A stretch of 54,777 bases of DNA, taken from the NCBI GenBank assembly GCA_965366355.1, contig CBDUEZ010000001.1, positions 1 to 54,777 of the forward strand. Reading direction: 5' to 3'. Shown piece after piece: positions 5,209-19,825 of the stretch; the stretch's first letter is position 1, and every line of letters starts with the position of its first letter. The DNA is from an uncultured bacterium. Lineage in GTDB: Bacteria > Gemmatimonadota > Gemmatimonadetes > Longimicrobiales > Gaopeijiaceae. Position numbers and translations under genes: made by a program. The notes under the pieces are model-generated. The model did not search any database and was not told where the DNA came from. It worked only from the letters and a program-made list of their open reading frames with translations.

Positions 5209-6324
5209 TCACGACTCGCGTCGCCTGAGCGATCGAACACGCGCCGCCCTGCGCTCGACCTCGTCGAATCCACCCTCGACGGTTCCTGATTCGACGGCCT
5301 CGGCCAGGGCCGCGGCCAGACGACCTGCCGGATGAGGTATGCCCTCGCGAGGGCCGCCGAGGTTCACCGCATCCATGAGCAGGTCCGCGCCCGCCCTCAT
5401 CGAGGCCACCGCCGCAGGCACCGACCCGCCGACCTCCTGACCCGCGCCCCCCATGTCGAGCGAATCGGTCGCGATGACGCCGGAAAAGCCCAATTCCCGG
5501 CGTAGCACGCCGGCCACCACCGCCTGCGACGCCGAGGCGGGGTGCTCGGGGTCGACCTCCGTCCAGACGGCGTGCCCGACCATCACCATGGCCGGAGGGT
5601 CCTGGCCCCCCAGGATCGCCCGGTACGGGGCGAGCTCGGTGACGGCGTCGAAGTCGTCGCCGAGCACCGGCAGCGCTGCGTGCGTATCGAGGGTGGCCGA
5701 TCCGAGGCCCGGAAAATGCTTGAGACAGGTGACGACACCCTCTGCGTGATGGGCTGCAATCACATCACGGGCGCTGTCGATCACCGTGTCTGCGTCGGAG
5801 CCGAAGGTACGACCCTTCCGCGCGAGAGGGCCATCGGCCCGGGTGCCCAGGTCGACGACGGGGGCGAGATTCCCGTCGATCCCCACCCCGGCGATCTCCC
5901 GGGCCTGGCGACGAGCGGCCTCCTGCCGACGCTCGGGGGCCCACGTCGCCAACACGGCCGCCGATGGAAGACAGGCTTCGAAACCGCGCTCGGGGCGCAG
6001 GCGGGCCACCTCCCCGCCCTCCTGGTCGATCAGGATCACGAGGTGCTCGCCGAGCCGGCGGCGGAGATAGGTGCACAGCGCACGGAGTTGGTGAGGCGAG
6101 GTGACGTTCCGGTCGGCCACCCGTCGCGCCTCCACCTCGTCGGCCCCCTCGCTCATCGCCGCACGGAAGCGAGGAACGTCGACGTCGAACAGCACGATGC
6201 TCCCGACTCCGGCGGCGCGACAGATGTCGAGATCAGCCTCCAGTCGCGGATCACCAGCGGCGGCGCCGCGCACCCCGACGGAAAGCAGGGCGCCACATCG
6301 AACGATAGGGTCGTGGGTCAGCAT
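5209..6324 (-). CDS. nagZ: Glycoside hydrolase family 3 beta-N-acetylhexosaminidase (NagZ-like)
   Basis: Motifs IDQEGGEVARL, NLAPVVDL, CLKHFPGLG-x4-DTH and ATDSLDMG. Start set at ATG 6324 because the longer track ORF overlaps ligD. Confidence 0.82.
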   Translation of the reverse strand: MLTHDPIVRCGALLSVGVRGAAAGDPRLEADLDICRAAGVGSIVLFDVDVPRFRAAMSEGADEVEARRVADRNVTSPHQLRALCTYLRRRLGEHLVILIDQEGGEVARLRPERGFEACLPSAAVLATWAPERRQEAARRQAREIAGVGIDGNLAPVVDLGTRADGPLARKGRTFGSDADTVIDSARDVIAAHHAEGVVTCLKHFPGLGSATLDTHAALPVLGDDFDAVTELAPYRAILGGQDPPAMVMVGHAVWTEVDPEHPASASQAVVAGVLRRELGFSGVIATDSLDMGGAGQEVGGSVPAAVASMRAGADLLMDAVNLGGPREGIPHPAGRLAAALAEAVESGTVEGGFDEVERRAARVRSLRRRES

Positions 6325-6447
6325 GACTTCGAAGGTGACATCCCTTCGCCGCAGGGCAAGGCCGGCGCCGGGTGGCGCGCCGTCCCATCGCCGCCGACCT
6401 TGTGGCGACGCCTCCCCGACAGAGTCCCCCCTCAGGCTGCGACGGCA

Positions 6448-9024
6448 GTGACCGACGACAAACTCCGACGCTACCGCGAGAAACGGGAGGCCGGACAGAC
6501 GCCGGAGCCTTTCGGAGGCTCGCCCACCGCCGCCGGGTCGCGGATGTTCGTCGTGCAGATGCACGCGGCCCGCAATCTCCACTGGGACCTGCGCCTGGAG
6601 ATGGGAGGAGCGCTCGAGAGTTGGGCCGTACCGAAGGGGCCGTCACCAAACCCGGCCGACAAGCGGCTCGCCATGCATGTGGAGCCGCACCCGCTCGAGT
6701 ATGCCGATTTCGAGGGGGTCATTCCCGAGGGTCAGTACGGCGCGGGACCCTCGATCTGCTGGGACCGAGGGGTGTGGATCGAGATTCCCGAAAAGCCGGG
6801 CGGACCGAAGCACGGAATCGAACACGGCAAGCTCCTCTTCGAGCTTCGTGGCTACAAGCTGAAGGGACTCTGGACCCTGGTCCACACACCCCGAAACGGC
6901 GAAAACCACTGGCTCCTGATCAAGGAACACGACGCCCTCGTCGACGAACGCGGCACGGATCTCTACCCCCGCGATTCGATTCTCTCGGGTCTGACGGTCG
7001 AGGAACTCGCCGATCCGGCGAGCAAGCAGAGCCGCCTCGTGACGGAGGCGAAGGCGGCAGGGGCCGTCGAGTCGGTGGTGGCGGCAGAGGGCCTCGAGTT
7101 GATGCTCGCAACGGCGCTGGACGAACCCTTCTCGAAAGACGGCTGGGTCTTTGAGATCAAGTACGACGGCTATCGCATCGCTGCGGCGCGATCCGGCACC
7201 AACGCCCGCCTCTGGTCGAGAAACGGCAACGATCTCACCGACACGTTTCCAGAGATTGCACGGGCCGTTCGCGGACTCCCATTCCCCGGGACGATTCTCG
7301 ACGGTGAGGTCGTCGTGCACGATGCGACGGGTATGCCGTCGTTCGCTCTCCTCCAGAAACGGGGGCGTCTCACCCGGAGGGCCGACGTGGCTGCGGCCGC
7401 GGTGCAACTGCCCGCGACATACTATGCCTTCGACCTTCTGGCCTTCGGTGGCCTCGACCTACGCGGGCTTCCATTGGTCGACCGCAAACGATTGCTGCGA
7501 GAGGTTCTCCCGACGGTGGGCCCCGTTCGGTATTCCGAACACATCGACCGCGAGGGAATCGCGGTCTTCGAACATGCGGCGCGACTCGGGATCGAAGGCG
7601 TCGTCGCCAAACGGGCAGCGGCCCCGTACGCGAGGGGCCGTTCGTCGGATTGGTTGAAGATCCGCACCGTAAGAACCGACGACTTCGTGGTGGTCGGTTG
7701 GACCGACCCCAAAGGCACGCGACAGGGGTTCGGCGCCCTGCATCTCGGCTGCTGGACCTCACCTCCCGCCGATGATCCGGGCGCCCGGCTCCTCTATGCG
7801 GGTTCGGTCGGCACCGGCTTCAGCGGATCGGACCTCGACGATTTCGGGGTGGCCCTCGAACCGCTCGCCCGTCCGGAGCCGGCGGTCGTGGGCGACGGGG
7901 TTCCCGACGGTTCCGGGCATCATTGGGTCGAGCCCCGGCTGGTGGTCGAGGTGCGGTACAAGGAACTCACGCCGGCCGGCCATCTGCGCCACCCTTCGTT
8001 CCTTGCGCGCCGACTCGACAAAGATCCCACCGAGTGCGTCTGGCCCGACGGGGGGGCCGGCGCACCGCGATCGGCCGACCCCGAACGCGATGCCGAGGCC
8101 CTTCTACCGGCCCCGGGGCCGGTTACGGGCGCCGTGCCGAGCGAAGTCGCCGTGACGAACGTCGACAAGATTCTCTACCCCGAGCGCGAACTCTCGAAAG
8201 GGACGGTACTGGACTACTACGATGCGATCGCACCGTGGATGCTCCCCTATCTCGAAGACCGATGTCTGGTCCTCACACGGTATCCCGACGGCATCCACTC
8301 GACGTCGTTCTACCAGAAGAACGCTCCCGACTGGGCGCCCGACTGGATCCGGACCGAGACGGTCTATAGCGAGGGCAGCGCGCGCGATCTGGACTATTTC
8401 GTGATCGACGACGCCATGGGACTGAAGTACGTCGCCAACTCCGCGGCTCTACTTCTGCACATCTGGGGAGCGCGCGTCGGATCCCTCTCGCATCCGGATT
8501 GGTGCATTCTCGACCTCGATCCCAAAGAGGCCCCCTTCGCGCATGTGGTCGAGCTCGCCCTGGCCATCAAGGAGATCGGAGACGATATCGGACTCCCGCT
8601 CTACGTAAAGACGAGTGGCTCCTCGGGTCTGCATCTCCTCGTTCCGCTGGGTCGCCGCCTGACCCACGAACAGACCAAACAGCTGGGGCAACTCCTGGCC
8701 ACGGTCGCGGTGCAGGAGAGAGGAGACATCGCCACCATCGACCGAGTCATCGAGCGACGAGACGGCAAGGTGTATGTCGACTTTCTTCAGAACGGGTGGG
8801 GAAAACTTCTCGTGGCACCGTTCTCGACGCGGCCGGTGCCCGAGGCCGCCGTGAGCATGCCGTTGGAATGGGCCGAAGTAGACTCCTCACTCGGCCCTCG
8901 CGATTTCACGATTACGAACGCGGTCGCCCGAATGGAAGCGATGGGGCGCGACCCGCTTCGGCCCGTCCTCGACGAAGCTCCAGATCTCCTGCGAGCCCTG
9001 GAACGTCTACTCGCGCGGGTGTGA
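6448..9024 (+). CDS. ligD: Multifunctional DNA ligase D (phosphoesterase-ligase-polymerase)
   Basis: From GTG 6448 (MTDDKLRRYREKR). PE domain: FVVQMHAARNLHWDLRLE, SWAVPKGPS. Ligase: EIKYDGYR, EGVVAKR, WLKIR. Polymerase: RYPDGI, FYQKN, LDLDP, KTSGSSGLH, VDFLQN. Confidence 0.97.
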   Translation: MTDDKLRRYREKREAGQTPEPFGGSPTAAGSRMFVVQMHAARNLHWDLRLEMGGALESWAVPKGPSPNPADKRLAMHVEPHPLEYADFEGVIPEGQYGAGPSICWDRGVWIEIPEKPGGPKHGIEHGKLLFELRGYKLKGLWTLVHTPRNGENHWLLIKEHDALVDERGTDLYPRDSILSGLTVEELADPASKQSRLVTEAKAAGAVESVVAAEGLELMLATALDEPFSKDGWVFEIKYDGYRIAAARSGTNARLWSRNGNDLTDTFPEIARAVRGLPFPGTILDGEVVVHDATGMPSFALLQKRGRLTRRADVAAAAVQLPATYYAFDLLAFGGLDLRGLPLVDRKRLLREVLPTVGPVRYSEHIDREGIAVFEHAARLGIEGVVAKRAAAPYARGRSSDWLKIRTVRTDDFVVVGWTDPKGTRQGFGALHLGCWTSPPADDPGARLLYAGSVGTGFSGSDLDDFGVALEPLARPEPAVVGDGVPDGSGHHWVEPRLVVEVRYKELTPAGHLRHPSFLARRLDKDPTECVWPDGGAGAPRSADPERDAEALLPAPGPVTGAVPSEVAVTNVDKILYPERELSKGTVLDYYDAIAPWMLPYLEDRCLVLTRYPDGIHSTSFYQKNAPDWAPDWIRTETVYSEGSARDLDYFVIDDAMGLKYVANSAALLLHIWGARVGSLSHPDWCILDLDPKEAPFAHVVELALAIKEIGDDIGLPLYVKTSGSSGLHLLVPLGRRLTHEQTKQLGQLLATVAVQERGDIATIDRVIERRDGKVYVDFLQNGWGKLLVAPFSTRPVPEAAVSMPLEWAEVDSSLGPRDFTITNAVARMEAMGRDPLRPVLDEAPDLLRALERLLARV

Positions 9025-11436
9025 TCGCGGCACTGCGAGGAGTTCGCGCACGCGGCGGTACAACTGCTCTCGCCGATAGGGCTTCTTCAAGAGGGGAAGA
9101 TCGTCGCGTTCGGCCAGGGGCCCGGCGGCGTCGAGATACCCGGTCGAGAGAATAATGGGAAGCCCGGGGTCGAGAGCTCGGAGCGCCTGGGCTGCCTCCG
9201 CCCCTCCCATGCGAGGCATGGTCAGGTCCATCAGCACGAGGTCGATCCCCGTCGGGTTCTCCTGATAGCGCTCGAGGGCCTCGAGCCCGTCCCGGGCGAG
9301 GATGACCTCCATGCCGAGCACCTGAAGCATGGTCTCAGCCACCTCTCTCACGGTTTCTTCATCGTCGACCACGAGCACCGTGCCCGACATCTCGCCGCTC
9401 TCGACAAGGTCGAACTGGGGAGCGCTCACACTCGCGCGCTCGTGTTCCGGGAGGGCCGGTAGGAGCACCTGAATCTCGCTGCCCCGCCCCTTGGTCGTGC
9501 GGAGCGTCAGAGCTCCTTTGTGCCCCCTCACGATTCCAAGAACGGCCGCCAGGCCCAGCCCGCGGCCCCGCGCCTTCGTGCTGAAGAAGGGATCGAAGAT
9601 GCGCTGGCGGGTTTCTTCGTCCATCCCGACCCCTGTGTCGGCCACTCGGATACCGGCCCAGGGTCCGGTCTCGGGTCGGGCATCGACGACGGCGTCCTTC
9701 TCGCGCACCGGATCGGCCTCGGTGTGGAAGGTGGCAATCTCGATCCACCCCCGTCGCCCTCCGACCGCGTCGGCCGCATTGGTCAGCAGATTCAGAACAA
9801 CCTGCCGCAGTTGCACCACGTCGCCTCGAACGGCCGGGAGTCTCGGCGCGAGACGAAGAGTCAGTTCCGCCGTCGGCGGCAGCGAGACCTCCATCAGCTC
9901 GGTCATCTCCTGAACGACCTCGTTCAGATCGACGGGCTCAACGGTAGATCGTCCCTTTCCGGCATACGCCAGCATCTGCTGGCATAGATCCGCGGCCCGC
10001 TGCGACGCCCGCAGCACTTCCTCCACGTGGTCTCGGGCCGGGTGTTCGGCCTCCAGGACCGTCTCCGCCAGGTCGGCATTGCCCATGATCGCCACGAGCA
10101 GATTGTTGAAGTCGTGCGCGATGCCGCCCGCGAGCAACCCCAGGCTCTCGAGGCGTTTGGTCTGCTGTACCTGCTCCTCGAGTCGGCGGCGTTCAGTCAG
10201 GTCTCGAAGGGCCCAGATGCGGCCCGAGACCCAGCCGGTACGCAGTAGCGGAGCGGCGAACCGCTCGAAGACACGGCCGTCGTCGAGCGACACCTCGTCG
10301 AGAATTTGACGATCGGAGCCGAGCAGCTGAGGAAGGGCCTCGTCTTCGACTTCGAGGAACGCCTTCACCCGCGGATCCTCGTGGCTGAGCATTCGGGGCG
10401 CGGTCTCTCGGCCCTCGGGGTCCCAGAGTTTGGCGAACCGCTGATTGGCAAACGAAACGCGCCCGGCTGTGTCGGCGGCCACGATGGCGTCGGCCGTCGC
10501 CTCGAGAACCGAGCGCATTCTCTCCTGCGTGCGCTCGAGAGCCCGCCCACTTCGCTTGCGGTCCTCCACCACACCGGCGACCACCAGCGATGTAATCGTG
10601 TTGATCGCCACGAAGAGCCAGAGTTGAAACAGCCGTTCGTTGGTCGACAGGACCGGGGTGGAGAAGGGTCCGGTGTCGAGAGCCGTCGCTCCCATGGCCA
10701 CGGCCGACAGGATCAGGTTCGCCGCCGCCGCCCCGGGTACGCCGAATCGGATTCCCGCCCAGATCAATAGGGGGAAGGGAGCATAGAGCAGGCGTCGCCC
10801 TGGCGTGGCCGGGTCGTAGGTCCAGAAGATCAGAAGTCCGAGCACGGCAACCGAGATCATGGCGACGGCCGCCTCGGCCACTCGCGGGACCGACCATGTG
10901 CGGGGCTCACTGAGCGCCATGATCAGGGGCGCCAGGAGGACCATACCGTTCGCGTGGGTGAGCCACCACAGAACGGGTACCGACCCGAAGACCGACCAGG
11001 GCGCGCCTTCGAACAGAACCAGCGCCACGGTCGCCAGGCCCGAGCTTACCCCCGCAGACAGCCCGGCCGCGAGCACCACCAGGGCCGCGATGTCGACGCC
11101 GCTCTTCAGACCCTCGTCTACCCCGACTCGCCGAAGCAGAAGTCCGGCGACGACGGCTTCGAGCGAGTTGATCACTCCGGTAGCCAATGCGTACGGGAGC
11201 GCACCACCGGTGATGCCCGTGACGAGGACTTCACCGATAAACACAAGGGGCCAGGCGCGCACCCCAAGACGCAGGATCGCCGCCAGCGCCACCCCGCTTC
11301 CCAACCATACGACCCGGCTCAAGTCGAGGTCGAGGCCGAACCACTGGGGCTCCAGTGTCACCAACCCGAGAAGCAGGTACCCGACCAGATAGCCCGCCGC
11401 GGGCAGGGCGATGGATTGGTGGGGGCGAGCGGTCAC
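9007..11436 (-). CDS. MASE1-PAS hybrid sensor histidine kinase/response regulator
   Basis: Multi-TM MASE1-like N-terminus. Kinase motifs LAGGIAHDFNNLL, QVVLNLLTNA, DTGVGM, FDPFFSTK, GRGLGL. Receiver motifs LVVDDE, LMDLTMP, KKP. Confidence 0.93.
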   Translation of the reverse strand: MTARPHQSIALPAAGYLVGYLLLGLVTLEPQWFGLDLDLSRVVWLGSGVALAAILRLGVRAWPLVFIGEVLVTGITGGALPYALATGVINSLEAVVAGLLLRRVGVDEGLKSGVDIAALVVLAAGLSAGVSSGLATVALVLFEGAPWSVFGSVPVLWWLTHANGMVLLAPLIMALSEPRTWSVPRVAEAAVAMISVAVLGLLIFWTYDPATPGRRLLYAPFPLLIWAGIRFGVPGAAAANLILSAVAMGATALDTGPFSTPVLSTNERLFQLWLFVAINTITSLVVAGVVEDRKRSGRALERTQERMRSVLEATADAIVAADTAGRVSFANQRFAKLWDPEGRETAPRMLSHEDPRVKAFLEVEDEALPQLLGSDRQILDEVSLDDGRVFERFAAPLLRTGWVSGRIWALRDLTERRRLEEQVQQTKRLESLGLLAGGIAHDFNNLLVAIMGNADLAETVLEAEHPARDHVEEVLRASQRAADLCQQMLAYAGKGRSTVEPVDLNEVVQEMTELMEVSLPPTAELTLRLAPRLPAVRGDVVQLRQVVLNLLTNAADAVGGRRGWIEIATFHTEADPVREKDAVVDARPETGPWAGIRVADTGVGMDEETRQRIFDPFFSTKARGRGLGLAAVLGIVRGHKGALTLRTTKGRGSEIQVLLPALPEHERASVSAPQFDLVESGEMSGTVLVVDDEETVREVAETMLQVLGMEVILARDGLEALERYQENPTGIDLVLMDLTMPRMGGAEAAQALRALDPGLPIILSTGYLDAAGPLAERDDLPLLKKPYRREQLYRRVRELLAVPRSHPRE

Positions 11437-11599
11437 GGGAGGAATCCCGGAAGATGCGAGGGGGGCGAGACCCGGAATGATGCACCCCCGAGGCCGCGCC
11501 TAGCAACGAGCGCCGGTCGCCGCCCCCTTGCGGCAAGGGCGCCGACACCGACTCTTGCGGATCGATTCGCGTTCGTGCTCACCCCCCATTGGAGGCCCG

Positions 11600-12424
11600 A
11601 TGCTCCGTCAGACGATGGCACGCCGCCCGATTTCGACCCTCGCCCTCGTCGCCTCGACACTTCTGACGGCCTCGTGTGGCGGAGATTCGCCCGACAACGC
11701 CGTCGAGGACGACGGAGGGGTCGGCCCCCCGGCCTCGCTTTCAGACCGCCTGGCTGATGGAGATGTGCTTCTCGGAGTGTTCTCTGGTCCGATGACCCCG
11801 GAACAGGGTGCGGCAATCGTCACTGAACGGGACGCCGACTTCGTGCTCTATTCGATGGAGTCCGGTCCCTTCGATCTCGCCGCGATGAATGCATACATGG
11901 AGGGTATGCGGATGGGGGCGAGCGGTCAGGGCGCATCGCCCCAGCCCGTTCTTCTGCGCGTGCCTGCGATCCACACGGATCGCGAGGGCGCCGCGACCCG
12001 TCTCCCCGAGGCGCTCGCGACCGACATCGCCGGCATCGTTTTTCCGCACGTGACCACGGCCCTCGAAGCGGCCGAATCGGTTGCCCTCATGGGCGCCCCG
12101 TGGCCGTTGGGAGACGCCGGCCTCAACGTCCTCATCGTGGAGGATCGGGAAGGAGTCTCCAACGTCAGGGAGATCATGGCGACGCCTGGTTTGTCGGTGG
12201 TCTTTGCAGGTCCAGGCGACCTTCGGCAGGCCTACGATGGCGACATGGCGGCGGTCGAGAATGCGATCCAGGCGGTGTTGTCAGCCTGCCTGGAATTTGA
12301 GGTGGCCTGCGGAGTCACGGCGGGAGTCGACGACATCGCGACGCGACTGGATCAGGGATTTCGCGTGATCATCGTCACGGATTCCGCGGCCCTTCCCGTG
12401 GGCCGCGCCCACGTTCGACCCTGA
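11600..12424 (+). CDS. HpcH/HpaI aldolase-citrate lyase family protein with a lipoprotein signal
   Basis: Motifs LLRVP, GIVFPHV, IVEDREGVSNVREI and FAGPGDL. Lipobox LTASC. The start is ATG 11600 or 11615. Confidence 0.78.
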   Translation: MLRQTMARRPISTLALVASTLLTASCGGDSPDNAVEDDGGVGPPASLSDRLADGDVLLGVFSGPMTPEQGAAIVTERDADFVLYSMESGPFDLAAMNAYMEGMRMGASGQGASPQPVLLRVPAIHTDREGAATRLPEALATDIAGIVFPHVTTALEAAESVALMGAPWPLGDAGLNVLIVEDREGVSNVREIMATPGLSVVFAGPGDLRQAYDGDMAAVENAIQAVLSACLEFEVACGVTAGVDDIATRLDQGFRVIIVTDSAALPVGRAHVRP

Positions 12425-12450: not shown

Positions 12451-12489
12451 AAAAAAGGGCCGGACCGCGTCTCGCGGTCCGGCCCTTTT
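12451..12489. terminator. Bidirectional intrinsic terminator
   Basis: AAAAAAGGGCCGGACCGCG-TCT-CGCGGTCCGGCCCTTTT lies between convergent genes. The tail is T6 on the minus strand and T4 on the plus strand. Confidence 0.88.
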
Positions 12490-12509
12490 GTCGCTGACCC
12501 GATGGGGCG

Positions 12510-14450
12510 TCAGCAGCTCCGGCACTTGTTGTTGTTGACCGCACCGAGGCTGACCAGCAGTTCGAGGGCCTCCGGGAACGGCTGAACCCGGGACTGGGGC
12601 CCGTTGGCCATATCGGCCGTCGTCTGACCCCGGCGGCTGACCAGGGTGACATCGGCGCCCTTCTCGACCAGATACATGATCAACTCGGTGTCGCCGCGAG
12701 CCGCCGCGTGGTGCACCGCCGAGTAACCGTCGTGGTCACGCGCGTCGACCTCGACCCCCAGCTCCTCGACGAGGTACTTCACGGCCGGAAGCCAACCATC
12801 GGGCACATACCGATGGGAGTTCGCGGCAAAGTTCTGCCCGTAGCCAACCCCCGACGCGGCGTGGATCGGGTAGACACCCGGGCCCCCCGCGGGAATCGGC
12901 TCGAGGCCCGACGGATCTTCGTCGGGGGTATCACCACCGCCACCACGACGCGCCCGCTGCGCCGGCTTCCGGGTCGGAATGGTGTGGTCCGCCCCATTCG
13001 CGACCAGAAGCTTCATGGCCTGCACGTCGGTCGCATACGCCGCTCTCCAGAAGGCGGTCGCACCGTCCACGTTGATGCCGAGCAGGTCGAAGTTGTACGA
13101 CATGTACCAGATGTGCTTCGAAACGCGCGCATTCGGGTCGGCGCCCGCGTCGAGGAGAATCTGCATGAAGTCGAGGTAAGACAGCGTCTGCTGCTCGTAC
13201 GCCCGCGGCTGCGGGTAGAGGGCCTTCGGCGCCCAGTACACGTTGATCGCGGCGAACAGCGGGGTCGCGCCAGCGTGCGACGGCAGGTTGACGTCGGCTC
13301 CCATGGCCACGAACTCGGCGGCCATGTCGTAGTGGCCGTTGATGGTCGCCAGAAGCACCGGGCTGGTATGATCGCCGCCAGTCACCAGGTTGAGTTCAGC
13401 GCCCGCGTCGAGGAGCGCCATCGCCGTCTCGGTGTGGCCCTGCCGCACCGCGTGGTGAAGCGCCGTCAGGCCACCATGGCCGCCGACGAGATCGTCGTAG
13501 CCGAGCGGCTCCGGATCGGGGTCGTCGTCTTCGTCCTCGTCGTCTTTTTCGTCTTCAATGGCGGGAGGCGGAGCGACGGCGTCCTGGTCGGGCACGACCT
13601 GGGCCTGCTCGTCCTCGGCCTTTTCCTCCTCGTCGGCCTTCGCTTCCTCGTCATCGGCCTTCGCTTCCTCGTCATCGGCCTTCGCTTCCTCGTCATCGGC
13701 GGCGGCGACCTCTTCTTCGTCATCCGCGGCCGGCTCGGCCCACGACTCCTGGCCCGCCGTGGCGTCGGCCAGGGCCTGAGCCCTGATCGCGGCCATCCGC
13801 TCCCCGCGCGCGCGCCCTTCGATCGCGTCTTCAGCCGTCAGCGTCTCGATCATGACGACCTTCGACATCGCGTCGATCTCGGCGCCCGCGAGAATCAAGA
13901 GCTTCGCGGCCTCGGTGCGACCCTGGTCTGCAGCCCACATGAGGGGCGTCTGCTCCCAGCGAACCTCTTTGGCGTCGACCTCAGCGCCATGGTCGAGCAG
14001 AGCGCTGACCGCTTCGGCGCTGCCCGACGAAGCCGCCAGGTGAAGCGCGGTCACACCGGTGCCCGTCCGTGCGTCGACGTCGGCTCCAGCCTCGAGCAGG
14101 TGGCTCACGATGACCCCCTGACCCGCCCGCGCGCCGACCATGAGGGGGGTGTAGGCACCCACGCGCGTCGTCGGTCCCACATTGGCCCCGGCATAGATCA
14201 ACATGTCCGCCAACTCGACATGTCCGTGCTCGGCCGCCCAATGGAGCGCCGTCATTCCGTCACCCTGAGCCGCGTTGACGTCTGCCCCCCCCTGAAGGAG
14301 TGAACGGACCGCAGCCACGTCTTCTCGCATGGCCGCGTCAGCGACCGGCGCCTCCGTGTCGGCTCCGGTCATCAGGAGAAGGGCCGCCAGCGCCACGAGC
14401 GCGTCGACCCGAAAGCGCCTCCGCGGGGAGGCGGTCGTCATCTGATTCAT
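12510..14450 (-). CDS. Exported ankyrin-repeat protein
   Basis: Many ANK repeats (DGMTALHWAA, TPLMVGA, TALHLAA, TPLMWAA, TALHHAV, TPLFAA, SAVHHAAARG). Signal-like N-terminus and C-terminal CRSC. ATG 14450 overlaps the upstream stop (ATGA). Confidence 0.92.
   Translation of the reverse strand: MNQMTTASPRRRFRVDALVALAALLLMTGADTEAPVADAAMREDVAAVRSLLQGGADVNAAQGDGMTALHWAAEHGHVELADMLIYAGANVGPTTRVGAYTPLMVGARAGQGVIVSHLLEAGADVDARTGTGVTALHLAASSGSAEAVSALLDHGAEVDAKEVRWEQTPLMWAADQGRTEAAKLLILAGAEIDAMSKVVMIETLTAEDAIEGRARGERMAAIRAQALADATAGQESWAEPAADDEEEVAAADDEEAKADDEEAKADDEEAKADEEEKAEDEQAQVVPDQDAVAPPPAIEDEKDDEDEDDDPDPEPLGYDDLVGGHGGLTALHHAVRQGHTETAMALLDAGAELNLVTGGDHTSPVLLATINGHYDMAAEFVAMGADVNLPSHAGATPLFAAINVYWAPKALYPQPRAYEQQTLSYLDFMQILLDAGADPNARVSKHIWYMSYNFDLLGINVDGATAFWRAAYATDVQAMKLLVANGADHTIPTRKPAQRARRGGGGDTPDEDPSGLEPIPAGGPGVYPIHAASGVGYGQNFAANSHRYVPDGWLPAVKYLVEELGVEVDARDHDGYSAVHHAAARGDTELIMYLVEKGADVTLVSRRGQTTADMANGPQSRVQPFPEALELLVSLGAVNNNKCRSC
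13637..13699. repeat. Three perfect 21-bp tandem repeats encoding (ADDEEAK)n inside the ankyrin gene
   Basis: CCTTCGCTTCCTCGTCATCGG at 13637, 13658 and 13679, with degenerate flanking copies. Confidence 0.95.
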
Positions 14451-15856
14451 CCTGCCTCCGCTGCTACACCGGGATTGGTGAAGGAGAACTCGCCCGTGCT
14501 GTCGCCGAACGACGCCATGTCTTCGAGTCCAAGACGATGCATCAGCGACAGCATCACGTTCGCCATCGGCGTGCCGTCCTCGGCTCGCAAGTGCATCCCA
14601 CCGTCCAGCTGTCCGTTGTTTCCGCCGAGAATGACCAGCGGGCACCGCTTGTGGTTGTGAACGTTCGGGTCGCCCATCGGAGACCCGTAGATGATCGTCG
14701 TCTTGTCGAGCAGGCTCGAGTCACCCTCCTGGATCTCGGCAAGCCGGTCGAGGAAGTACGGCAGCATCGCGACATGGTAGCGATTGATCTGCGCGAAGTC
14801 CTTGATGTTGTCGACGTTGTCGCCATGGTGCGAGGCGGGGTGGAACGGCTTGTCGACACCACTGGCGGGGTAGACTCTCGAGGACCCGTCGCGTCCCATC
14901 TTGAAGGAGAAGACGCGAGTGACATCTGATGCGAACGCCAGAGCCTGCAGGTCGAACATGAGCATGACGTGCTCATCGAACGAGTCGGGAACACCGGCCG
15001 GCGCCGAGGGCAACTCACGAACGGCCCCGCTCCGGTTCTGCGTTTCCACCATCTCGATCCGACGCTCGATCTCACGGATGTTTTCGAGGTAGCGATCGAT
15101 GCGACGCTGGTCTTCGACTCCCACCGCCCGCTTGATCGAAGCGATCTGCTGCGGCACCCAGTCGAGAATGCTCATGTTCGTCTTGCGACGAAGCGCGCGC
15201 TGCTCCTCCGTGCCACCGGCCCCGAAGAGCTGGTCGAAGACGACCCGCGGATCGCGGATCATGGGAAGCGGCTCCGACTCCGAGGCCCAACTCACCGTGT
15301 CGGTGTAGACGCAGGCGTACCCGTATGCGCAGCCACCCGCCTGGTCGACCGGCTCGATGCACAACTGCATCGAGGGGATCGGCGTCGTCTGACCGTATCG
15401 GTCAGCGAACATCTGATCGAGGGATTGCCCGACCTTGACGTCGGAGCCCTCGGTCTGGTGGGGCCGCTGCTGGGTGAGGAACACGGCACTCGAGCGGAAG
15501 TGGTCCCCCCCGATTTCTTCGGGCTCGAAAGCCTCGGCCATCCGGACGTCGGTGTTCGACACGATGGTCATGTACTGCCGATAGGCATCGAGGGGGCTCA
15601 ACGCGCTCCCACTGAGATCGAAATCCCGGCCGACCCCGGCCGGCGCCCAAAGGTTGTTTTCCAGTCCGTACTTCGCGGCGCCCGCGGATCCGTGAACCAT
15701 TTCGATGGCCACCAGGCGAGTCCGCTCAGCCTCGGCGCGCACCTGGCCCATGATGCGGCCCGCGGGTGTCATGGCGTCGAGAAGCGGTAGAGAGATCGTC
15801 GCACCGAGTCCCCGCAAGAAGGTGCGGCGGGGCATGTGCTTTCCAGTAATGAACAT
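14447..15856 (-). CDS. DUF1552-family protein
   Basis: N-terminus MFITGKHMPRRTFLRGLGATISLPLLDAM. Motifs SLDQ, GYACVYTDTVSW, DPRVVFDQLFG, ALAFASDVTRV, HPASHH and SLLDKT. Confidence 0.88.
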   Translation of the reverse strand: MFITGKHMPRRTFLRGLGATISLPLLDAMTPAGRIMGQVRAEAERTRLVAIEMVHGSAGAAKYGLENNLWAPAGVGRDFDLSGSALSPLDAYRQYMTIVSNTDVRMAEAFEPEEIGGDHFRSSAVFLTQQRPHQTEGSDVKVGQSLDQMFADRYGQTTPIPSMQLCIEPVDQAGGCAYGYACVYTDTVSWASESEPLPMIRDPRVVFDQLFGAGGTEEQRALRRKTNMSILDWVPQQIASIKRAVGVEDQRRIDRYLENIREIERRIEMVETQNRSGAVRELPSAPAGVPDSFDEHVMLMFDLQALAFASDVTRVFSFKMGRDGSSRVYPASGVDKPFHPASHHGDNVDNIKDFAQINRYHVAMLPYFLDRLAEIQEGDSSLLDKTTIIYGSPMGDPNVHNHKRCPLVILGGNNGQLDGGMHLRAEDGTPMANVMLSLMHRLGLEDMASFGDSTGEFSFTNPGVAAEAG

Positions 15857-15877
15857 GGCGTTATCTCGGGTAGGGGA

Positions 15878-18310
15878 TCAGTGCGAGGCTTCGTCAGTGA
15901 CGGTGCCGGGTTCGGCCTTCGTGCGGAACGCATCACTGCGCACCACACCCAGGATGAAGGCCGACATGCGGTAGTCCTCCGCCGCGGCCTGACGAGAGAT
16001 GGCTCGAATCGTCGGTTGGTCGAAGTGCTCGACCCGCCGGCCGATTGCGTAGGCCATCAGGTTTTCGGTAAAGGTCCGCACGAGCGGCTCCGGGCGATTG
16101 AGCAATGCGCTCCGGAGGTCCGTAACGGAGTTGAGGGGTGTTCCATCGTAGAGTTCACCACGAACGTCGACCAGGTTCCCCGCATCCTTGATCCTCCAAC
16201 GACCTGTGACGTCATAGTTCTCGAGGGCCAGGCCGAGCGGATCGATCACACGATGGCAGGAGTTACACGACGGATTCGCCCGGTGCAACTCCATCTGTTC
16301 GCGCACCGTCAAGAAGCGGCCGTCGTCGGCTGCATCGCCGGTCTCCTCCAGACCCGGAACGTCCGGCGGCGGCGGCGGCGGGGGTGTACCGAGAAGCACC
16401 TCCATCACCCACTTCCCACGCAACACCGGTGACGTGCGATTGGCATGCGAGGTGAGCGTGAGAATGCTCCCCTGCCCGAGCAATCCGCGGCGATGTTCCT
16501 CAGGGTAGACGACCCGCTTGAAGTCTTCGCCGGCGATCCCCGTGATGCCGTAGTGCCTCGCCAGTCGCTCGTTGGCGAACGTGTAGTCGGCCGTCAGCAA
16601 CTCGAGGACGCTCCGGTCTTCGGCAACCAGATTGTTGAAGAACCGAACGGTCTCCTCGACCATGTCCTCCGCCAACTGTGTGTCGTAGTCCGGGTACTTC
16701 AACGCATCCGGATGCACCTTCTCGATATCCGACAGTCTGAGCCACTGTGCAGCGAAACGCGTGCCGAGGCGTTCGGCCCGTGGGGCCGCCAGCATCCGTC
16801 GCACCTGGGCGTCGAGTACGTCGGGCTCCGACAGACGGCCCTCGTTGGCCAGCGTCATGAGTTCGGAATCGGGCGGCGCCCCCCAGAGGAAGAACGACAG
16901 CCGAGAAGCGAGGTCGTCATCCGACAGGGTGTAGACGCCGTCGGCCGTCGCCGTACCCTGGAGTTCCTCGATCCGGAAGAGGAAATGCGGGCTCGCCAGC
17001 ATGGCCTGGAGCGCAATGCCGATCCCGGCCTCGAAGCCGCCGAGTTCGTGGCCCTGGCGATAGAAGTTCATCAGGTCGGCGAGTTCGCCGTCCTCGAGCG
17101 ACCGCCGGTACGCCTTCGTCGCCAATCGCGACACGATGCTCGACGCGCAGGGCTCCTCTTCAGCCGCACTGGTCGGACGACAGGTGAAGATCTCCCGGCG
17201 ACTCGGAGTGTCGGACACGCCCGTGACCTTGTACGGGCCCCCGATCCGGAGTTCACGCAGGTGCGGAACCGTCGTGATGCCGTACGACAGCCCGATCTGG
17301 GTGTCGGCCAAGCTGTGCCCGATCGGCGCGATGATGTCGACGACCGGCCCCTCCTGCGTGGGGAGGAAGGCCGCAGACACTCGGCGCGGACCCGCCCGAA
17401 TGAAGACCGTCTCGGTCTCGATCTCCGTGCCGTCGGGATCCGACTGCGACATCCAACGGTCGATCTCCATCAGCGCGACCCGCTCGCCGTCGATCGAGAC
17501 TTCCAGCATCTCGCCCCGAGCGGTGCGAGCGAACATCTCGCCCGTCGGCGTCGGCTGCAGAAGAACGCGAAAACGGTACTCTCCGTCGGCTGCGAAGGTA
17601 TGGACCGTGCTGATCCCCCCTCGTGTGCCGAAGGGCGTGCCCTCGATGTGCTCGTTCTGCGAGGCCAGGCGAGGCACCTTGTAGGTTGCCTCGCTCGGAA
17701 TCGCCCTGGGGTCGCCCACCGCGAGCCGGCTGACTTCTCCAGCCGCATTCAGGTAGGCATCCATGAGAACCGGAGACAACATCTGGGCGTCGGCGATGTT
17801 GTCGAAGTTCGCGCTCTTCGTATCGGGGGGCAGGTAACCGGACGCGTCGATGTCGAGCGCGAGAAGGTCCCTCACCGATGCGGCATACTCGGCCTGGTTG
17901 AGTCGCTGGAAGGCGCGCGTTCCCGGATTGGGCGACAACATCGCAGCCGAATCGATCGTCGACTCGAGCTGGGTCACCAAGCCCTCGAGAACGCTCTCGT
18001 CCGGGCGGCGAGATCCGGCCGGAGGCATCATGCCCGCGCGCAGTTTGCGGATCATCGCCTCGGCGACCTGCGCCTGCTCATGGGCCGATCCCGCGTCGAA
18101 GCTATCGAGGGAGAAGTTACCGACGAGCCGGCGGTCGTTGTGACAACGCTGGCAATACTCCTCGATCACCTCGTTGCTCTGGGCCGGATCGATGGGTCGA
18201 ACGGAGGCCATACCCGGATCGGGTAGGGGCCCACTGACGGCGGAACTCGTATCGACCGATCCGCCGAGAAGCAGCAGGCCGAGCCCGCCAAGAAATACGA
18301 CTGCCTTCAT
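15878..18310 (-). CDS. DUF1592/1588/1595/1587/1585-domain c-type cytochrome (planctomycete PSD/PSCyt-like)
   Basis: Two CxxCH motifs (CQRCH, CNSCH). Also KLRAGMMPP, RLNQAEY, LASRLSFFLW, FAAQWL, TSPVLRGKWVMEVLLG and DPLGLALENYD. Start at ATG 18310 (MKAVVFLGG, signal peptide). Confidence 0.9.
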   Translation of the reverse strand: MKAVVFLGGLGLLLLGGSVDTSSAVSGPLPDPGMASVRPIDPAQSNEVIEEYCQRCHNDRRLVGNFSLDSFDAGSAHEQAQVAEAMIRKLRAGMMPPAGSRRPDESVLEGLVTQLESTIDSAAMLSPNPGTRAFQRLNQAEYAASVRDLLALDIDASGYLPPDTKSANFDNIADAQMLSPVLMDAYLNAAGEVSRLAVGDPRAIPSEATYKVPRLASQNEHIEGTPFGTRGGISTVHTFAADGEYRFRVLLQPTPTGEMFARTARGEMLEVSIDGERVALMEIDRWMSQSDPDGTEIETETVFIRAGPRRVSAAFLPTQEGPVVDIIAPIGHSLADTQIGLSYGITTVPHLRELRIGGPYKVTGVSDTPSRREIFTCRPTSAAEEEPCASSIVSRLATKAYRRSLEDGELADLMNFYRQGHELGGFEAGIGIALQAMLASPHFLFRIEELQGTATADGVYTLSDDDLASRLSFFLWGAPPDSELMTLANEGRLSEPDVLDAQVRRMLAAPRAERLGTRFAAQWLRLSDIEKVHPDALKYPDYDTQLAEDMVEETVRFFNNLVAEDRSVLELLTADYTFANERLARHYGITGIAGEDFKRVVYPEEHRRGLLGQGSILTLTSHANRTSPVLRGKWVMEVLLGTPPPPPPPDVPGLEETGDAADDGRFLTVREQMELHRANPSCNSCHRVIDPLGLALENYDVTGRWRIKDAGNLVDVRGELYDGTPLNSVTDLRSALLNRPEPLVRTFTENLMAYAIGRRVEHFDQPTIRAISRQAAAEDYRMSAFILGVVRSDAFRTKAEPGTVTDEASH

Positions 18311-18536
18311 GCCATGCCTCACGTTGGATTGTAGTACCGCCCCGCAACCACTCCAGACCCACACCGAGTGTGGGATACAATACGGCCTAGCCCCGCTCTC
18401 GCGCCAGCACTTCATGTCACCGGAACCGCCCGCAAGAGCCTGTCCCGGTGGCTCATAGCCAATTCCGGGGGACCCCCTGTCCACCTATGACAGCCCGGGG
18501 CCCCGAAGTGTTGAAGACCGCGACGTCCGGCGTGCG

Positions 18537-19100
18537 TCAGCCGCCCCCCGCCGGCTCCCCGAATCGGAGGATACTCGACAGCGCGCCGCCGTCCGGCGTG
18601 AGGTAGAGCACGTAGATTCGGTCGTACTCGTCGACGCCGATCGCCGCCCCCGGGTCGCCACCGAGCTGACCCACCAGAGCCGGCGATGTGTTCGAGTGCC
18701 CCACGACCAGGTGTCGGCCCGGCGATCGGAGAACCGCATGGAACGCCTCCGTGGAGGCCCTGTCTCCAGGATTGTACGGGTCAACCTCGAGTCCCAGGGC
18801 CTGCGCCAGGGGCGCGGCGGTCTGCATGGTACGGCGGTACGGAGTGGAGTGGATGCTCGTGATCCCCGCCTCCCCGAGAAATCGAGCGAGTTCCTGCGCG
18901 CGGGCGTGCCCGACATCAGACAAATCCGGGTCGGGTTGATCATCCATTCCGGCGTCGGCCCGCTCCGCGTGCCGCACCACCCAGACGATCGACACCGCGT
19001 CCCCACCCGAATCTTGCGCTGCGGTCGGGGCGGCCACCGAAAGGACCACCAGGGCGACGCCGAAGAACATCCGGCTGAGGGCGCATCGTCGAGTCGTCAT
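18537..19100 (-). CDS. Secreted histidine phosphatase family protein (phosphoglycerate mutase/SixA-like)
   Basis: Motifs VVRHAER, STPYRRTMQTA and VVGHSNT. Signal peptide from ATG 19100. Confidence 0.88.
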   Translation of the reverse strand: MTTRRCALSRMFFGVALVVLSVAAPTAAQDSGGDAVSIVWVVRHAERADAGMDDQPDPDLSDVGHARAQELARFLGEAGITSIHSTPYRRTMQTAAPLAQALGLEVDPYNPGDRASTEAFHAVLRSPGRHLVVGHSNTSPALVGQLGGDPGAAIGVDEYDRIYVLYLTPDGGALSSILRFGEPAGGG

Positions 19101-19135
19101 CGTCAAGCTCCGCAGAAAGAAAGGGTCGCGCAGTA

Positions 19136-19825
19136 TCACAGAGTCCCAGCCCATTGCGCCAGTCTCCCGGCGAGGGAACGGATCACGTCGGCGTCGTCCC
19201 GGCCGGATCGCTTTCGCACATGGAATCCGTGGTCCGCGTCATCCTCGATATGAAGGATCGAGCCCGGCGGAAGGGTCGCCACCAACGGCCGGAGCAGATC
19301 GATCGCTCCCATCTTGTCGCGGGTGCCCTGCAACACGAGCACCGGGATGGTCAGATCCCGGAAGTGGGCAGCCCGATCCGTGCCCGGCCTGCCGACCGGA
19401 TGCAGCGGGAAGCCGACCAGGGCGATCCCCGCCACACCGGGAAGGGGCTGATCGGCGGCCGCGGTCGAGGTCATTCTGCCTCCAAACGACTTGCCGCCCG
19501 CGATCAGGCGCGCCCCTGGAATCCGTCGGTCACGCAGGCGCCGCCCCTCGGCGACCGCGCGGCGAACGGCGGCGACCGCGACCGGTTTCCTGTCCGGGCG
19601 ACGGCCACCCGCCGCCATATAGGGAAACTCCCACCGCATCGTGGCCACTCCGGCTTCCGCCAGCGCCACGGCCAATTCCTCCATGAACGGATGGCGCATG
19701 CCCGCGCCCGCGCCGTGGGCAAGAACGAGAAGGGCGTGGGCCCCGTCGGGCGCCAGAAGCAGAGCCGGCAGCTCGCCGTCTTCGGGAGTGTCGGGAGCAA
19801 TCGCGATCAGTTCGCTCTCCAGCAA
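19136..19825 (-). CDS. Alpha/beta hydrolase (KANSL3/Tex30-like family)
   Basis: Motifs LAHGAGAGM, GGKSFGGR (nucleophile Ser), GFPLHP, QGTRD and DADHGF. Start set at TTG 19825, which follows GAGAGG. Confidence 0.85.
   Translation of the reverse strand: MLESELIAIAPDTPEDGELPALLLAPDGAHALLVLAHGAGAGMRHPFMEELAVALAEAGVATMRWEFPYMAAGGRRPDRKPVAVAAVRRAVAEGRRLRDRRIPGARLIAGGKSFGGRMTSTAAADQPLPGVAGIALVGFPLHPVGRPGTDRAAHFRDLTIPVLVLQGTRDKMGAIDLLRPLVATLPPGSILHIEDDADHGFHVRKRSGRDDADVIRSLAGRLAQWAGTL

Follow-up and report, generated by a model that had tools for sequence, protein, structure and literature searches.

The definitions of the PSCyt and PSD domains reportedly go back to Studholme and co-workers in 2004. 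Group III of the PSCyt3 proteins, in which PSCyt3 and PSD4, often with PSD2, PSD3 or PSD5, are combined in one protein, was defined by its location beside DUF1552 genes, and its function was stated as not known (He et al. 2017, PMC5615132). In genomes of the Planctomycetes-Verrucomicrobia-Chlamydiae (PVC) group, PSCyt genes have fusions to carbohydrate-binding modules (CBMs) and sulfatase neighbors, and neither the main text nor the eight searched supplements of that paper mention an ankyrin protein (PMC5615132). A comparable module consists of a twin-arginine, enzyme-like DUF1501 protein and a multidomain PSCyt1/PSCyt2/PSD1 cytochrome. It was proposed to be a cofactor-loaded exported enzyme with its cytochrome (Kamneva et al. 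2012, PMC3542564). Descriptions of the PSCyt modules as intriguing and unexplained date back at least to 2012-2017 (PMC3542564, PMC5615132). Here, these modules are compared with three minus-strand genes found in a 54,777-nucleotide stretch of DNA (the window; contig CBDUEZ010000001.1 of assembly GCA_965366355.1) from an uncultured bacterium of the Gemmatimonadota.

The three genes encode a PSCyt3/DUF1592 cytochrome (A), a DUF1552 protein (B) and an ankyrin-repeat protein (C), and the trio is an ankyrin-bearing three-gene variant of a known but unexplained two-gene module. As in Group III, A contains PSCyt3 (DUF1588), PSD4 (DUF1592), PSD2, PSD3 and PSD5, all five above the Pfam cut-off, and the adjacent B matches HXXSHH/DUF1552 (E 3e-80), so that the family assignments of a preliminary description of this DNA stand. 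Many copies per genome and a slot for carbohydrate modules are also common to the Group III pair and this locus (PMC5615132). In contrast to that pair, B is accompanied in this clade by a fixed third gene for an ankyrin protein, the host belongs to the Gemmatimonadota rather than the PVC group, and the first strand of B ends in ExVHG, not YxPNG. The preliminary description had proposed an undescribed system, which holds for the trio and its mechanism but not for the A-B pair, already in print. It had named no function for DUF1592/DUF1552 pairs, and the literature searched for DUF1552 and DUF1592 likewise gave no function, fold or ankyrin partner, although most subscription journals were outside this search and an earlier mention is possible.

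The linkage described earlier, a 21-nt gap between A and B followed by an ATGA overlap between B and C on the minus strand, was verified in its coordinates and is widely conserved. A set of 79 close loci was retrieved by similarity to B; these are kin and not independent. C follows B directly in all 71 loci with enough downstream DNA (69 as one frame, two of these reaching the locus end, and 2 frameshifted), and the other 8 end at a contig edge. A precedes B in 74 of the 79, two loci have the order B-C-A and three end at a contig edge. B and C stay together where A has moved or is absent (L056, L057, L112, L117 and L230; two with B-C-A, three without an adjacent A). A second set of 83 B copies was chosen by genome: all 12 of G106, all 12 of G166, all 11 of G179, 13 of the 27 of G180, one of G178, every one of the 15 further matches from an Acidobacteriota sample and some of the copies in seven other Gemmatimonadota genomes. 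Here, C lies downstream of B in 76 copies (12/12 in G106), and the seven copies without C are divergent types, YxPNG-like or low-scoring against the clade profile. Co-occurrence of the ankyrin gene, which the preliminary description had named as a check, is thus seen in both sets. DUF1552 genes of the planctomycete phylum (20 of the 39 matches from genomes other than G178) have an adjacent A in 20/20 cases and a downstream ankyrin gene in 0/20. In a 62-row tree of B (IQ-TREE quick search, support by the Shimodaira-Hasegawa-like approximate likelihood ratio test [SH-aLRT] only, midpoint root), a clade of 39 rows with an SH-aLRT of 100 unites one orphan with all 38 of the ankyrin-linked B proteins. 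C likely joined the A-B pair once, in the Gemmatimonadota/Acidobacteriota lineage; the linkage itself is observed, and the role of C would be as proposed below. No fourth gene is conserved across the 79 close loci. The upstream histidine phosphatase (3/79 loci) and the convergent aldolase-like gene (8/79) were rejected as members. A, B and C are almost certainly a real three-gene unit, self-contained as first described.

Of 151 genomes from the host phylum, 32 have DUF1552, and the largest number of matches in one genome is 12; among nearer relatives it is found in 15/31 and among control genomes in 0/14. Paralogue number was another check named at the outset. Close homologues of B are named Longimicrobiales or Gemmatimonadota. 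A protein assigned by NCBI to Gaopeijia maritima, which we take to be a cultured species, is 86% identical to B. The genome of the window has a second A-B-C copy in the same order on contig C145 (5717-10409; A ends at the contig edge), with 62, 67 and 61% identity to A, B and C in the best segments and an ankyrin tail NCMSC, and a partial third A at the end of contig C18 (1-731). In G106, the paralogues have a mean identity of 63% for B and 54% for C. Between G106 and G166, identity is 89-96% in 11 of the 12 orthologue pairs of B and 78% in the remaining one, and B and C pick the same orthologue in 12/12 cases. Low identity between paralogues and high identity between orthologues indicate old copies, each separately kept. 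On contig C1 of G180, nine scattered matches of the 27 have an equal score (E 3.7e-89), a sign that one copy may have been amplified recently. The frame of A or C is apparently shifted, by assembly error or by decay, in L054, L064, L143, L218, L229 and L239.

The best overall reading, to which we give somewhat less than an even chance, is that the trio encodes an oxidoreductase of the periplasm that has a histidine-bound metal, is fed by haem and includes an ankyrin protein as its own subunit. Catalysis would take place in B, in which the hydrolytic site of a phosphatase/sulfatase fold is replaced by a histidine-bound redox metal. A would serve both as a two-haem electron wire and as the holder of the substrate, and C would dock on B as a partner subunit specific to it. 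A haem/metal redox complex in the periplasm was already suggested by the preliminary description. The idea fits the histidine cluster and the haem ligands, and it is refined here in that B is predicted to have a sulfatase/phosphatase fold in which the site is likely rebuilt.

C is an ankyrin-repeat protein with a hydrophobic N-terminus (best 13-mer Kyte-Doolittle 2.54) and, as stated earlier, a CRSC tail followed by the stop codon. Its conserved non-ankyrin features are W448, H546, R606 and the two tail cysteines, and conservation is higher in its C-terminal part (0.75-0.78) than in the N-terminal repeats (0.66). The acidic linker between the ankyrin blocks is lengthened by a 21-bp repeat and is variable among relatives. 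In a search with the C-terminal part, all of the 120 top proteins, which were selected by similarity to the C-terminal region of C, end in CxxC (113 exactly, 7 with one residue more). None of the 120 tails contains CxxCH, which rules out a haem-c site. Selenocysteine read-through is ruled out by the varying stop codons (TGA 56, TAG 10, TAA 1; n = 67). The spacing of the cysteines in 76 B-C pairs picked by genome is Cx2C in 63, Cx11C in 7 and Cx4C in 2; two short ankyrin proteins of the deepest branches lack the two cysteines and two are apparently frameshifted. Since two cysteines are kept at free spacing in an exported protein, a disulfide-closed loop is likely. The CxxC tail noted in the preliminary description is therefore present, but it is more likely disulfide-closed than a haem or thioredoxin site.

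Residues of B and C change together in the Cx11C subclade: His546 and Asn616 of C are altered jointly with His55 (to Met), Gln164 and Arg322 of B, and the wider tail loop has the histidine of a THF motif. This suggests that the tail of C, its His546 insert and the first-strand loop of B meet. The subclade spans two phyla (L115, L117, L125, L135, L136, L222 and L233), and EESMG replaces ExVHG in its B proteins. The C-terminal repeats, the His546 insert and the disulfide-closed tail of C could thus be imagined to pack on B near the end of the first strand (His55), where C would shape or shield the site of B. On balance, we lean slightly towards C being a stable partner of B.

An ankyrin protein can also serve an enzyme transiently. 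Cj1386 binds haem and serves the catalase KatA (PMC11442138), and the ankyrin protein AnkB, encoded in the same operon, is required for KatB activity (PMC12754779). By analogy, A and B alone may form the enzyme and C may be a maturation factor for haem or metal delivery or for assembly. In both catalase systems, as here, an ankyrin gene goes together with a gene whose protein product depends on a metal or on haem, the conserved non-ankyrin residues and tail cysteines of C could belong to such a factor, and planctomycete pairs do without C, as expected for a dispensable helper. However, no catalase is encoded near C, whose neighbors are B, the aldolase-like gene and the histidine phosphatase, and C is far longer than these proteins, with two repeat blocks, conserved inserts and the two-cysteine tail. 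Each paralogue has its own C (12/12 in G106), where one general chaperone per genome would suffice. Furthermore, the haems of A are of the CxxCH type with maturation genes of their own, and the leader of B suggests metal loading in the cytoplasm, whereas C has a Sec-type signal. A maturation role for C is therefore unlikely, though it deserves to be kept in mind.

The N-terminus of B differs from those of A and C. The preliminary description called all three export-like; A (best 13-mer Kyte-Doolittle 2.66) and C are hydrophobic, but the stretch in B is weaker (1.40) and includes an Asp. Beyond residue 45, no 19-mer of the three proteins exceeds 1.42. The leader of B fits the twin-arginine translocation (Tat) consensus, RRxFL ahead of a moderately hydrophobic stretch, and in a 93-row DUF1552 alignment R11 and P24 are kept in 93/93, R10 in 92/93 and L26 in 91/93 rows. 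B would fold and load its metal in the cytoplasm, and then be exported folded via Tat. Conservation of the LPxL[DE]AM segment of the leader is on a level with that of the catalytic residues, and the model shows the segment as an ordered hairpin (predicted local distance difference test [pLDDT] blocks 84-90). This hints that the leader perhaps does more than export targeting: it may be uncleaved, bind back to the protein, or be recognized by a chaperone.

The structural model of B, made from the 93-row alignment, has a pLDDT of 91.4 and a predicted template modelling score (pTM) of 0.93. Foldseek matched it to LtaS (E 4e-4) and sulfatases. With VIA-align, all 50 of the 50 rows listed belong to the alkaline phosphatase superfamily, the best with Z 16.2, a root-mean-square deviation (rmsd) of 4.0 and 278 aligned residues. 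There is little room for doubt that B is predicted correctly to have the alkaline-phosphatase/sulfatase fold. With this superfamily (sulfatases, NPP, LtaS, phosphoethanolamine transferases), B would share the core alpha/beta fold, with an aligned part of about 280 residues and an identity of 7-15%. Neither the sequences of A and B nor the B profile had a significant match in the PDB, NCBIfam had no match for A or B at E 0.01, and the ESM Atlas returned only DUF1552 clusters for B.

H119, H339 and H343 of B are invariant in the 93 DUF1552 rows, followed by H400 (92/93), H344 (86/93), C176/C182 (76/93), H402 (66/93), D118 (50/93) and C405 (13/93). The motifs listed in the preliminary description (RRTFL, GGDH, GGCAYGYAC, HPASHH and NVHNH) are all present but are of unequal weight, GGD and C405 being merely local. 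In 24 distant copies without ankyrin, H119, H339 and H400 are kept in 24/24, H343 in 20/24, H344 in 16/24 and the C176/C182 cysteines in 8/24. A weak profile alignment with sulfatases places HFRSSAVFLTQ on CxPxRxxxLxG, with H119 exactly at the Cys nucleophile, and S392-P-M-G395 on the SDNG metal motif, and the predicted helix and strand agree. B has no C/S-x-P-x-R nucleophile motif at the aligned place (HFRSS), no SD(H/N)G metal motif (S392-P-M-G395 instead) and no Pfam sulfatase match at E 0.01, and the Asp position of the first strand is Glu52 in B and Tyr, Phe or Asn in distant copies. Four NPP-type proteins matched the B profile too weakly to align (probability 0.1). The hydrolytic nucleophile and one metal site of B are likely gone from the sequence, while the histidine cluster remains. 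Judged by its defining residues, B is neither a sulfatase nor a phosphatase, despite their modelled fold.

DUF1501 proteins carry the same histidines. Against a 28-row DUF1501 profile, DUF1552 aligned over 370 columns with a probability of 96.95% (E 1.3e-10), whereas unrelated profile pairs used as controls stayed below 0.4%. H119, H343/344 and H400 fall on the NH, WD-x-H and RDHH motifs of DUF1501, where the His119 column has His in 23/28 rows (5 gaps) and the His400 column in 28/28. The DUF1501 profile itself matches sulfatases at 64.6%. Profile-profile comparison alone reveals the relationship, and B has no Pfam PF07394 (DUF1501) match at E 0.01; at this level, the comparison establishes that B is homologous to DUF1501, which keeps the histidines of B. 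The two modules differ in their Pfam families, and the described partners of DUF1501 are WD40 and other repeat proteins, not this ankyrin protein (PMC3542564). The genome of the window has no DUF1501 match at E 1e-40. The histidines of B probably form a metal site. In the predicted fold, His119, His339, His343/344 and His400 could hold Cu, Fe or Mn at a place where the relatives hold Zn or Ca and a Ser/Thr/Cys nucleophile, and B would oxidize or reduce its substrate with no hydrolysis.

Every close fold of B is a hydrolase or a transferase, and this allows a different use of the same residues. Histidine nucleophiles occur in aryl sulfotransferases that are independent of 3'-phosphoadenosine-5'-phosphosulfate and in histidine phosphatases, and the first zinc site of alkaline phosphatase is D-x3-H plus a final His. 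His119, in the nucleophile register, might be a covalent nucleophile of a phospho- or sulfo-transferase or hydrolase, with Zn at H339, H343 and H400, which match the first zinc site (H339-x3-H343 and H400) by topology alone, and A might be a haem redox sensor or scaffold that gates B. However, the second metal site, which activates the nucleophile, is lost, with S-P-M-G in place of SD(H/N)G and the first-strand Asp replaced. A cytochrome partner throughout the family, from planctomycetes (20/20) to Gemmatimonadota, is hard to explain for a hydrolase, and DUF1501 likewise has a cytochrome partner (PMC3542564). We consider such a transferase or hydrolase rather improbable. B departs from the superfamily in lacking the Ser/Thr/Cys nucleophile, CxPxR and SD(H/N)G and in having the histidine cluster and an obligate cytochrome partner instead.

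A has the marks of a c-type cytochrome: the two CxxCH motifs already recognized in the preliminary description (CQRCH at 53, CNSCH at 682), an export signal and maturation genes in the host, whose cytochrome c assembly genes are on contig C7. In 57 aligned A proteins (33 close and 24 distant), the first CxxCH is present in 53 (the remaining four are gaps) and the second in 57, Met95 is kept in 55 and His676 in 56. Judging from conservation, Met95 is likely the sixth ligand of haem 1 and His676 is a candidate sixth ligand of haem 2. His622 was ruled out as a haem ligand, since just 13/33 proteins conserve it. The haem ligands stay conserved out to the planctomycete copies. A would be exported via Sec, and the cytochrome c maturation system would supply both of its c-type haems; haem 1 (His/Met) would exchange electrons with the respiratory chain, and haem 2 (His686, probably His676) would lie closer to B. 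From general cytochrome chemistry, His/Met and probable His/His ligation suit an electron wire better than a peroxidase.

The model of A (48-row alignment) has a pLDDT of 81.5 and a pTM of 0.83. As a whole it had no Foldseek match at E 0.001, but residues 41-124 alone match a cytochrome c domain of the peroxidase YhjA (VIA-align Z 7.5, rmsd 2.5, 84 aligned). The VIA-align lists for A were otherwise taken up by jelly-roll matches. Di-haem proteins of the MauG/MbnH type modify proteins oxidatively, and A could be an enzyme of this kind that acts on residues of B or C to form a protein-derived cofactor or a cross-link. The YhjA match, the two haem motifs, the strict pairing with an exported partner, and the invariant His, Cys-x5-Cys and Tyr residues of B in this clade would all be in line with it. 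However, the haem motifs are 629 residues apart in different types of domain, both haems have candidate sixth ligands and leave no obvious open site, and a single fixed protein is a less fitting substrate for A, with its variable slot for a substrate module, than a small molecule or a polymer would be. Such a role for A is improbable.

The variable slot of A holds a predicted jelly roll (residues about 204-360). The top matches of this insert are CBM36, CBM6 and CBM35, the best (to CBM36) with Z 10.1, rmsd 2.6 and 104 aligned residues (Z 9.4 in a wide search), and the slot ranges from 2 to more than 700 residues among distant copies. A Cellvibrio CBM2-DUF1592 protein is included in a table of carbohydrate-active proteins of a wheat-straw metasecretome (PMC6004670). 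Together with the CBM fusions and sulfatase neighbors in PVC genomes, this protein and the CBM-like jelly roll support a link to carbohydrates. In the weakest step of the proposal, the substrate would most likely be a sugar or a sugar derivative presented by the jelly roll of A, and the old paralogues would have different substrates. A carbohydrate substrate is a tentative lead, on which we would not bet. Lytic polysaccharide monooxygenases (LPMOs) receive electrons from a cytochrome domain that is part of cellobiose dehydrogenase. Under the best reading given here, they and the trio would be alike in combining a histidine-bound redox metal, a haem donor and a CBM. They differ in having unrelated folds, and the trio is predicted to be periplasmic and has no histidine brace.

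A number of observations weigh against a haem-fed histidine-metal oxidoreductase. The profile match of B to 18 sulfatases is weak (probability 7-10%, E 0.003-0.005). The counts for H343 and H344 in distant copies mean that the four-histidine site is not universal, and a His at the nucleophile position equally fits covalent phospho- or sulfo-histidine catalysis. Planctomycete pairs without ankyrin indicate that C is not needed for the core chemistry. The covariation of His546, His55 and the tail is a single event, and co-duplication of an operon alone yields matching B and C trees without contact. The jelly roll is a common fold that toxin, tumor necrosis factor (TNF) and phage domains also match at Z about 8, which makes the sugar-binding idea a lead only, and some of the distant A proteins have no such insert. 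In the 79 close loci, neither carbohydrate-active nor sulfatase genes recur as conserved neighbors, and G106, with its 12 copies, has no sulfatase match at E 1e-40. Finally, TatC was not found in this 96% complete assembly. However, TatC is present in 18/19 genus relatives and in 5/5 single-contig genomes, and the gene that neighbors tatC in relatives reaches the end of contig C340 (4540) here. The absence is therefore probably an assembly gap, and the idea that B is cytoplasmic for want of a Tat system was set aside. With these points taken into account, redox chemistry of B fed by A is still marginally the better guess. That C is an unrelated eukaryote-like ankyrin protein, a host-interaction factor riding with the pair, is very improbable: many close loci come from records labelled Ca. 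Palauibacter, presumably marine-invertebrate symbionts rich in ankyrin proteins, and Legionella Ank effectors are among the NCBIfam matches of C, but these matches are generic and far under the cut-off (105 against 600 bits at best), and synteny largely refutes the idea, as C overlaps the stop codon of B and tracks B through rearrangements and duplications in two phyla.

The relationship of the two modules extends to the cytochromes. The N-terminal domain of A is homologous to that of the DUF1501 partner cytochromes (95.6% in profile comparison), and PSD4 is weakly homologous to PSCyt2 (43.7%, E 2.4e-4, with a hint in Pfam as well), so that both subunits of the DUF1552 and DUF1501 modules look related. 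It is conceivable, though doubtful, that the two modules represent one ancient, unrecognized superfamily of haem-wired oxidoreductases on an alkaline-phosphatase scaffold, in which a histidine takes the place of the nucleophile, His-bound Cu or Fe oxidizes periplasmic sugars, and the ankyrin protein of this clade, with its His546 loop and disulfide tail, completes the site. If true, a superfamily whose known reactions are hydrolysis and group transfer would also include redox catalysts, and abundant environmental bacteria would carry dozens of copies of these in each genome. Few genes of unassigned role in environmental bacteria are amplified as strongly as those of the PSCyt/DUF1552 and PSCyt/DUF1501 modules: DUF1552 has up to 12 matches in a Gemmatimonadota genome and 27 in an acidobacterial one, and a genome of the planctomycete phylum has 89 matches to DUF1501. 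The analysis ties these modules together and makes the open question testable by offering residue-level handles (His119/339/343/344/400 of B, Met95 and His676 of A, His546 and Cys643/646 of C). It also names a third subunit, which would need co-expression for the Gemmatimonadota/Acidobacteriota form.

Features of the three-gene locus and its neighbors, with positions in the window.
Feature	Position	Strand	Description	Basis
Gene A (P0001)	15878..18310	-	810 aa; Sec-type signal, N-terminal class I cytochrome c-like domain, PSD3, jelly-roll insert, PSD5, PSD4 (DUF1592), PSCyt3 (DUF1588), PSD2	
Gene B (P0002)	14447..15856	-	469 aa; DUF1552/HXXSHH, predicted alkaline-phosphatase/sulfatase fold	
Gene C (P0003)	12510..14450	-	646 aa; Sec-type signal, two ankyrin blocks split by acidic linker, conserved non-ankyrin inserts, two-cysteine tail	
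Haem motif 1 of A	18140..18154	-	CQRCH, residues 53-57	motif scan and alignment of A proteins
Predicted beta-sandwich of A	17231..17701	-	residues about 204-360, CBM36/CBM6/CBM35-like	structure model search
Haem motif 2 of A	16253..16267	-	CNSCH, residues 682-686	motif scan and alignment
Twin-arginine-like leader of B	15758..15856	-	RRTFL at 10-14 and conserved LPxL[DE]AM segment	alignment
His119 of B	15500..15502	-	register of the sulfatase Cys/formylglycine nucleophile	weak profile alignment and DUF1501 route
HPASHH of B	14825..14842	-	His339, His343, His344; candidate metal ligands	conservation
His400 of B	14657..14659	-	candidate metal ligand, aligned to the invariant DUF1501 RDHH histidine	conservation and profile comparison
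Tandem repeat in C	13608..13700	-	21 bp, 4.6 copies; encodes acidic EEAKADD linker	
His546 of C	12813..12815	-	in conserved insert	alignment
C-terminal CRSC of C	12513..12524	-	likely disulfide-closed tail	alignment
Intrinsic-terminator-like hairpin	12453..12489	-	17 pairs and T run	between C and the convergent aldolase-like gene
Histidine-phosphatase-family gene	18537-19154	-	signal-like N-terminus, upstream of A	
HpcH/HpaI aldolase-like gene	11528-12424	+	lipoprotein-like N-terminus, convergent with C	

The start of A was chosen as an ATG with GAGG ahead, and the mechanical open reading frame from a GTG at 18484 is longer. No sigma-70 promoter match was found at the locus. The GC content of the three genes is that of the flanks. 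The closing terminator of the preliminary description corresponds to a terminator-like hairpin of 17 pairs with a run of T. Across the region, the number of sites that resemble terminators is at chance level (4, compared with 3.5 in shuffles), and the case for this terminator therefore depends on its stem length and position. Beyond the aldolase-like gene, the window has a MASE1-PAS-histidine kinase-receiver hybrid at 9007-11436 (-), and a long frame at 5542-9024 (+) that, by eye, we take to resemble a LigD-type DNA ligase D.

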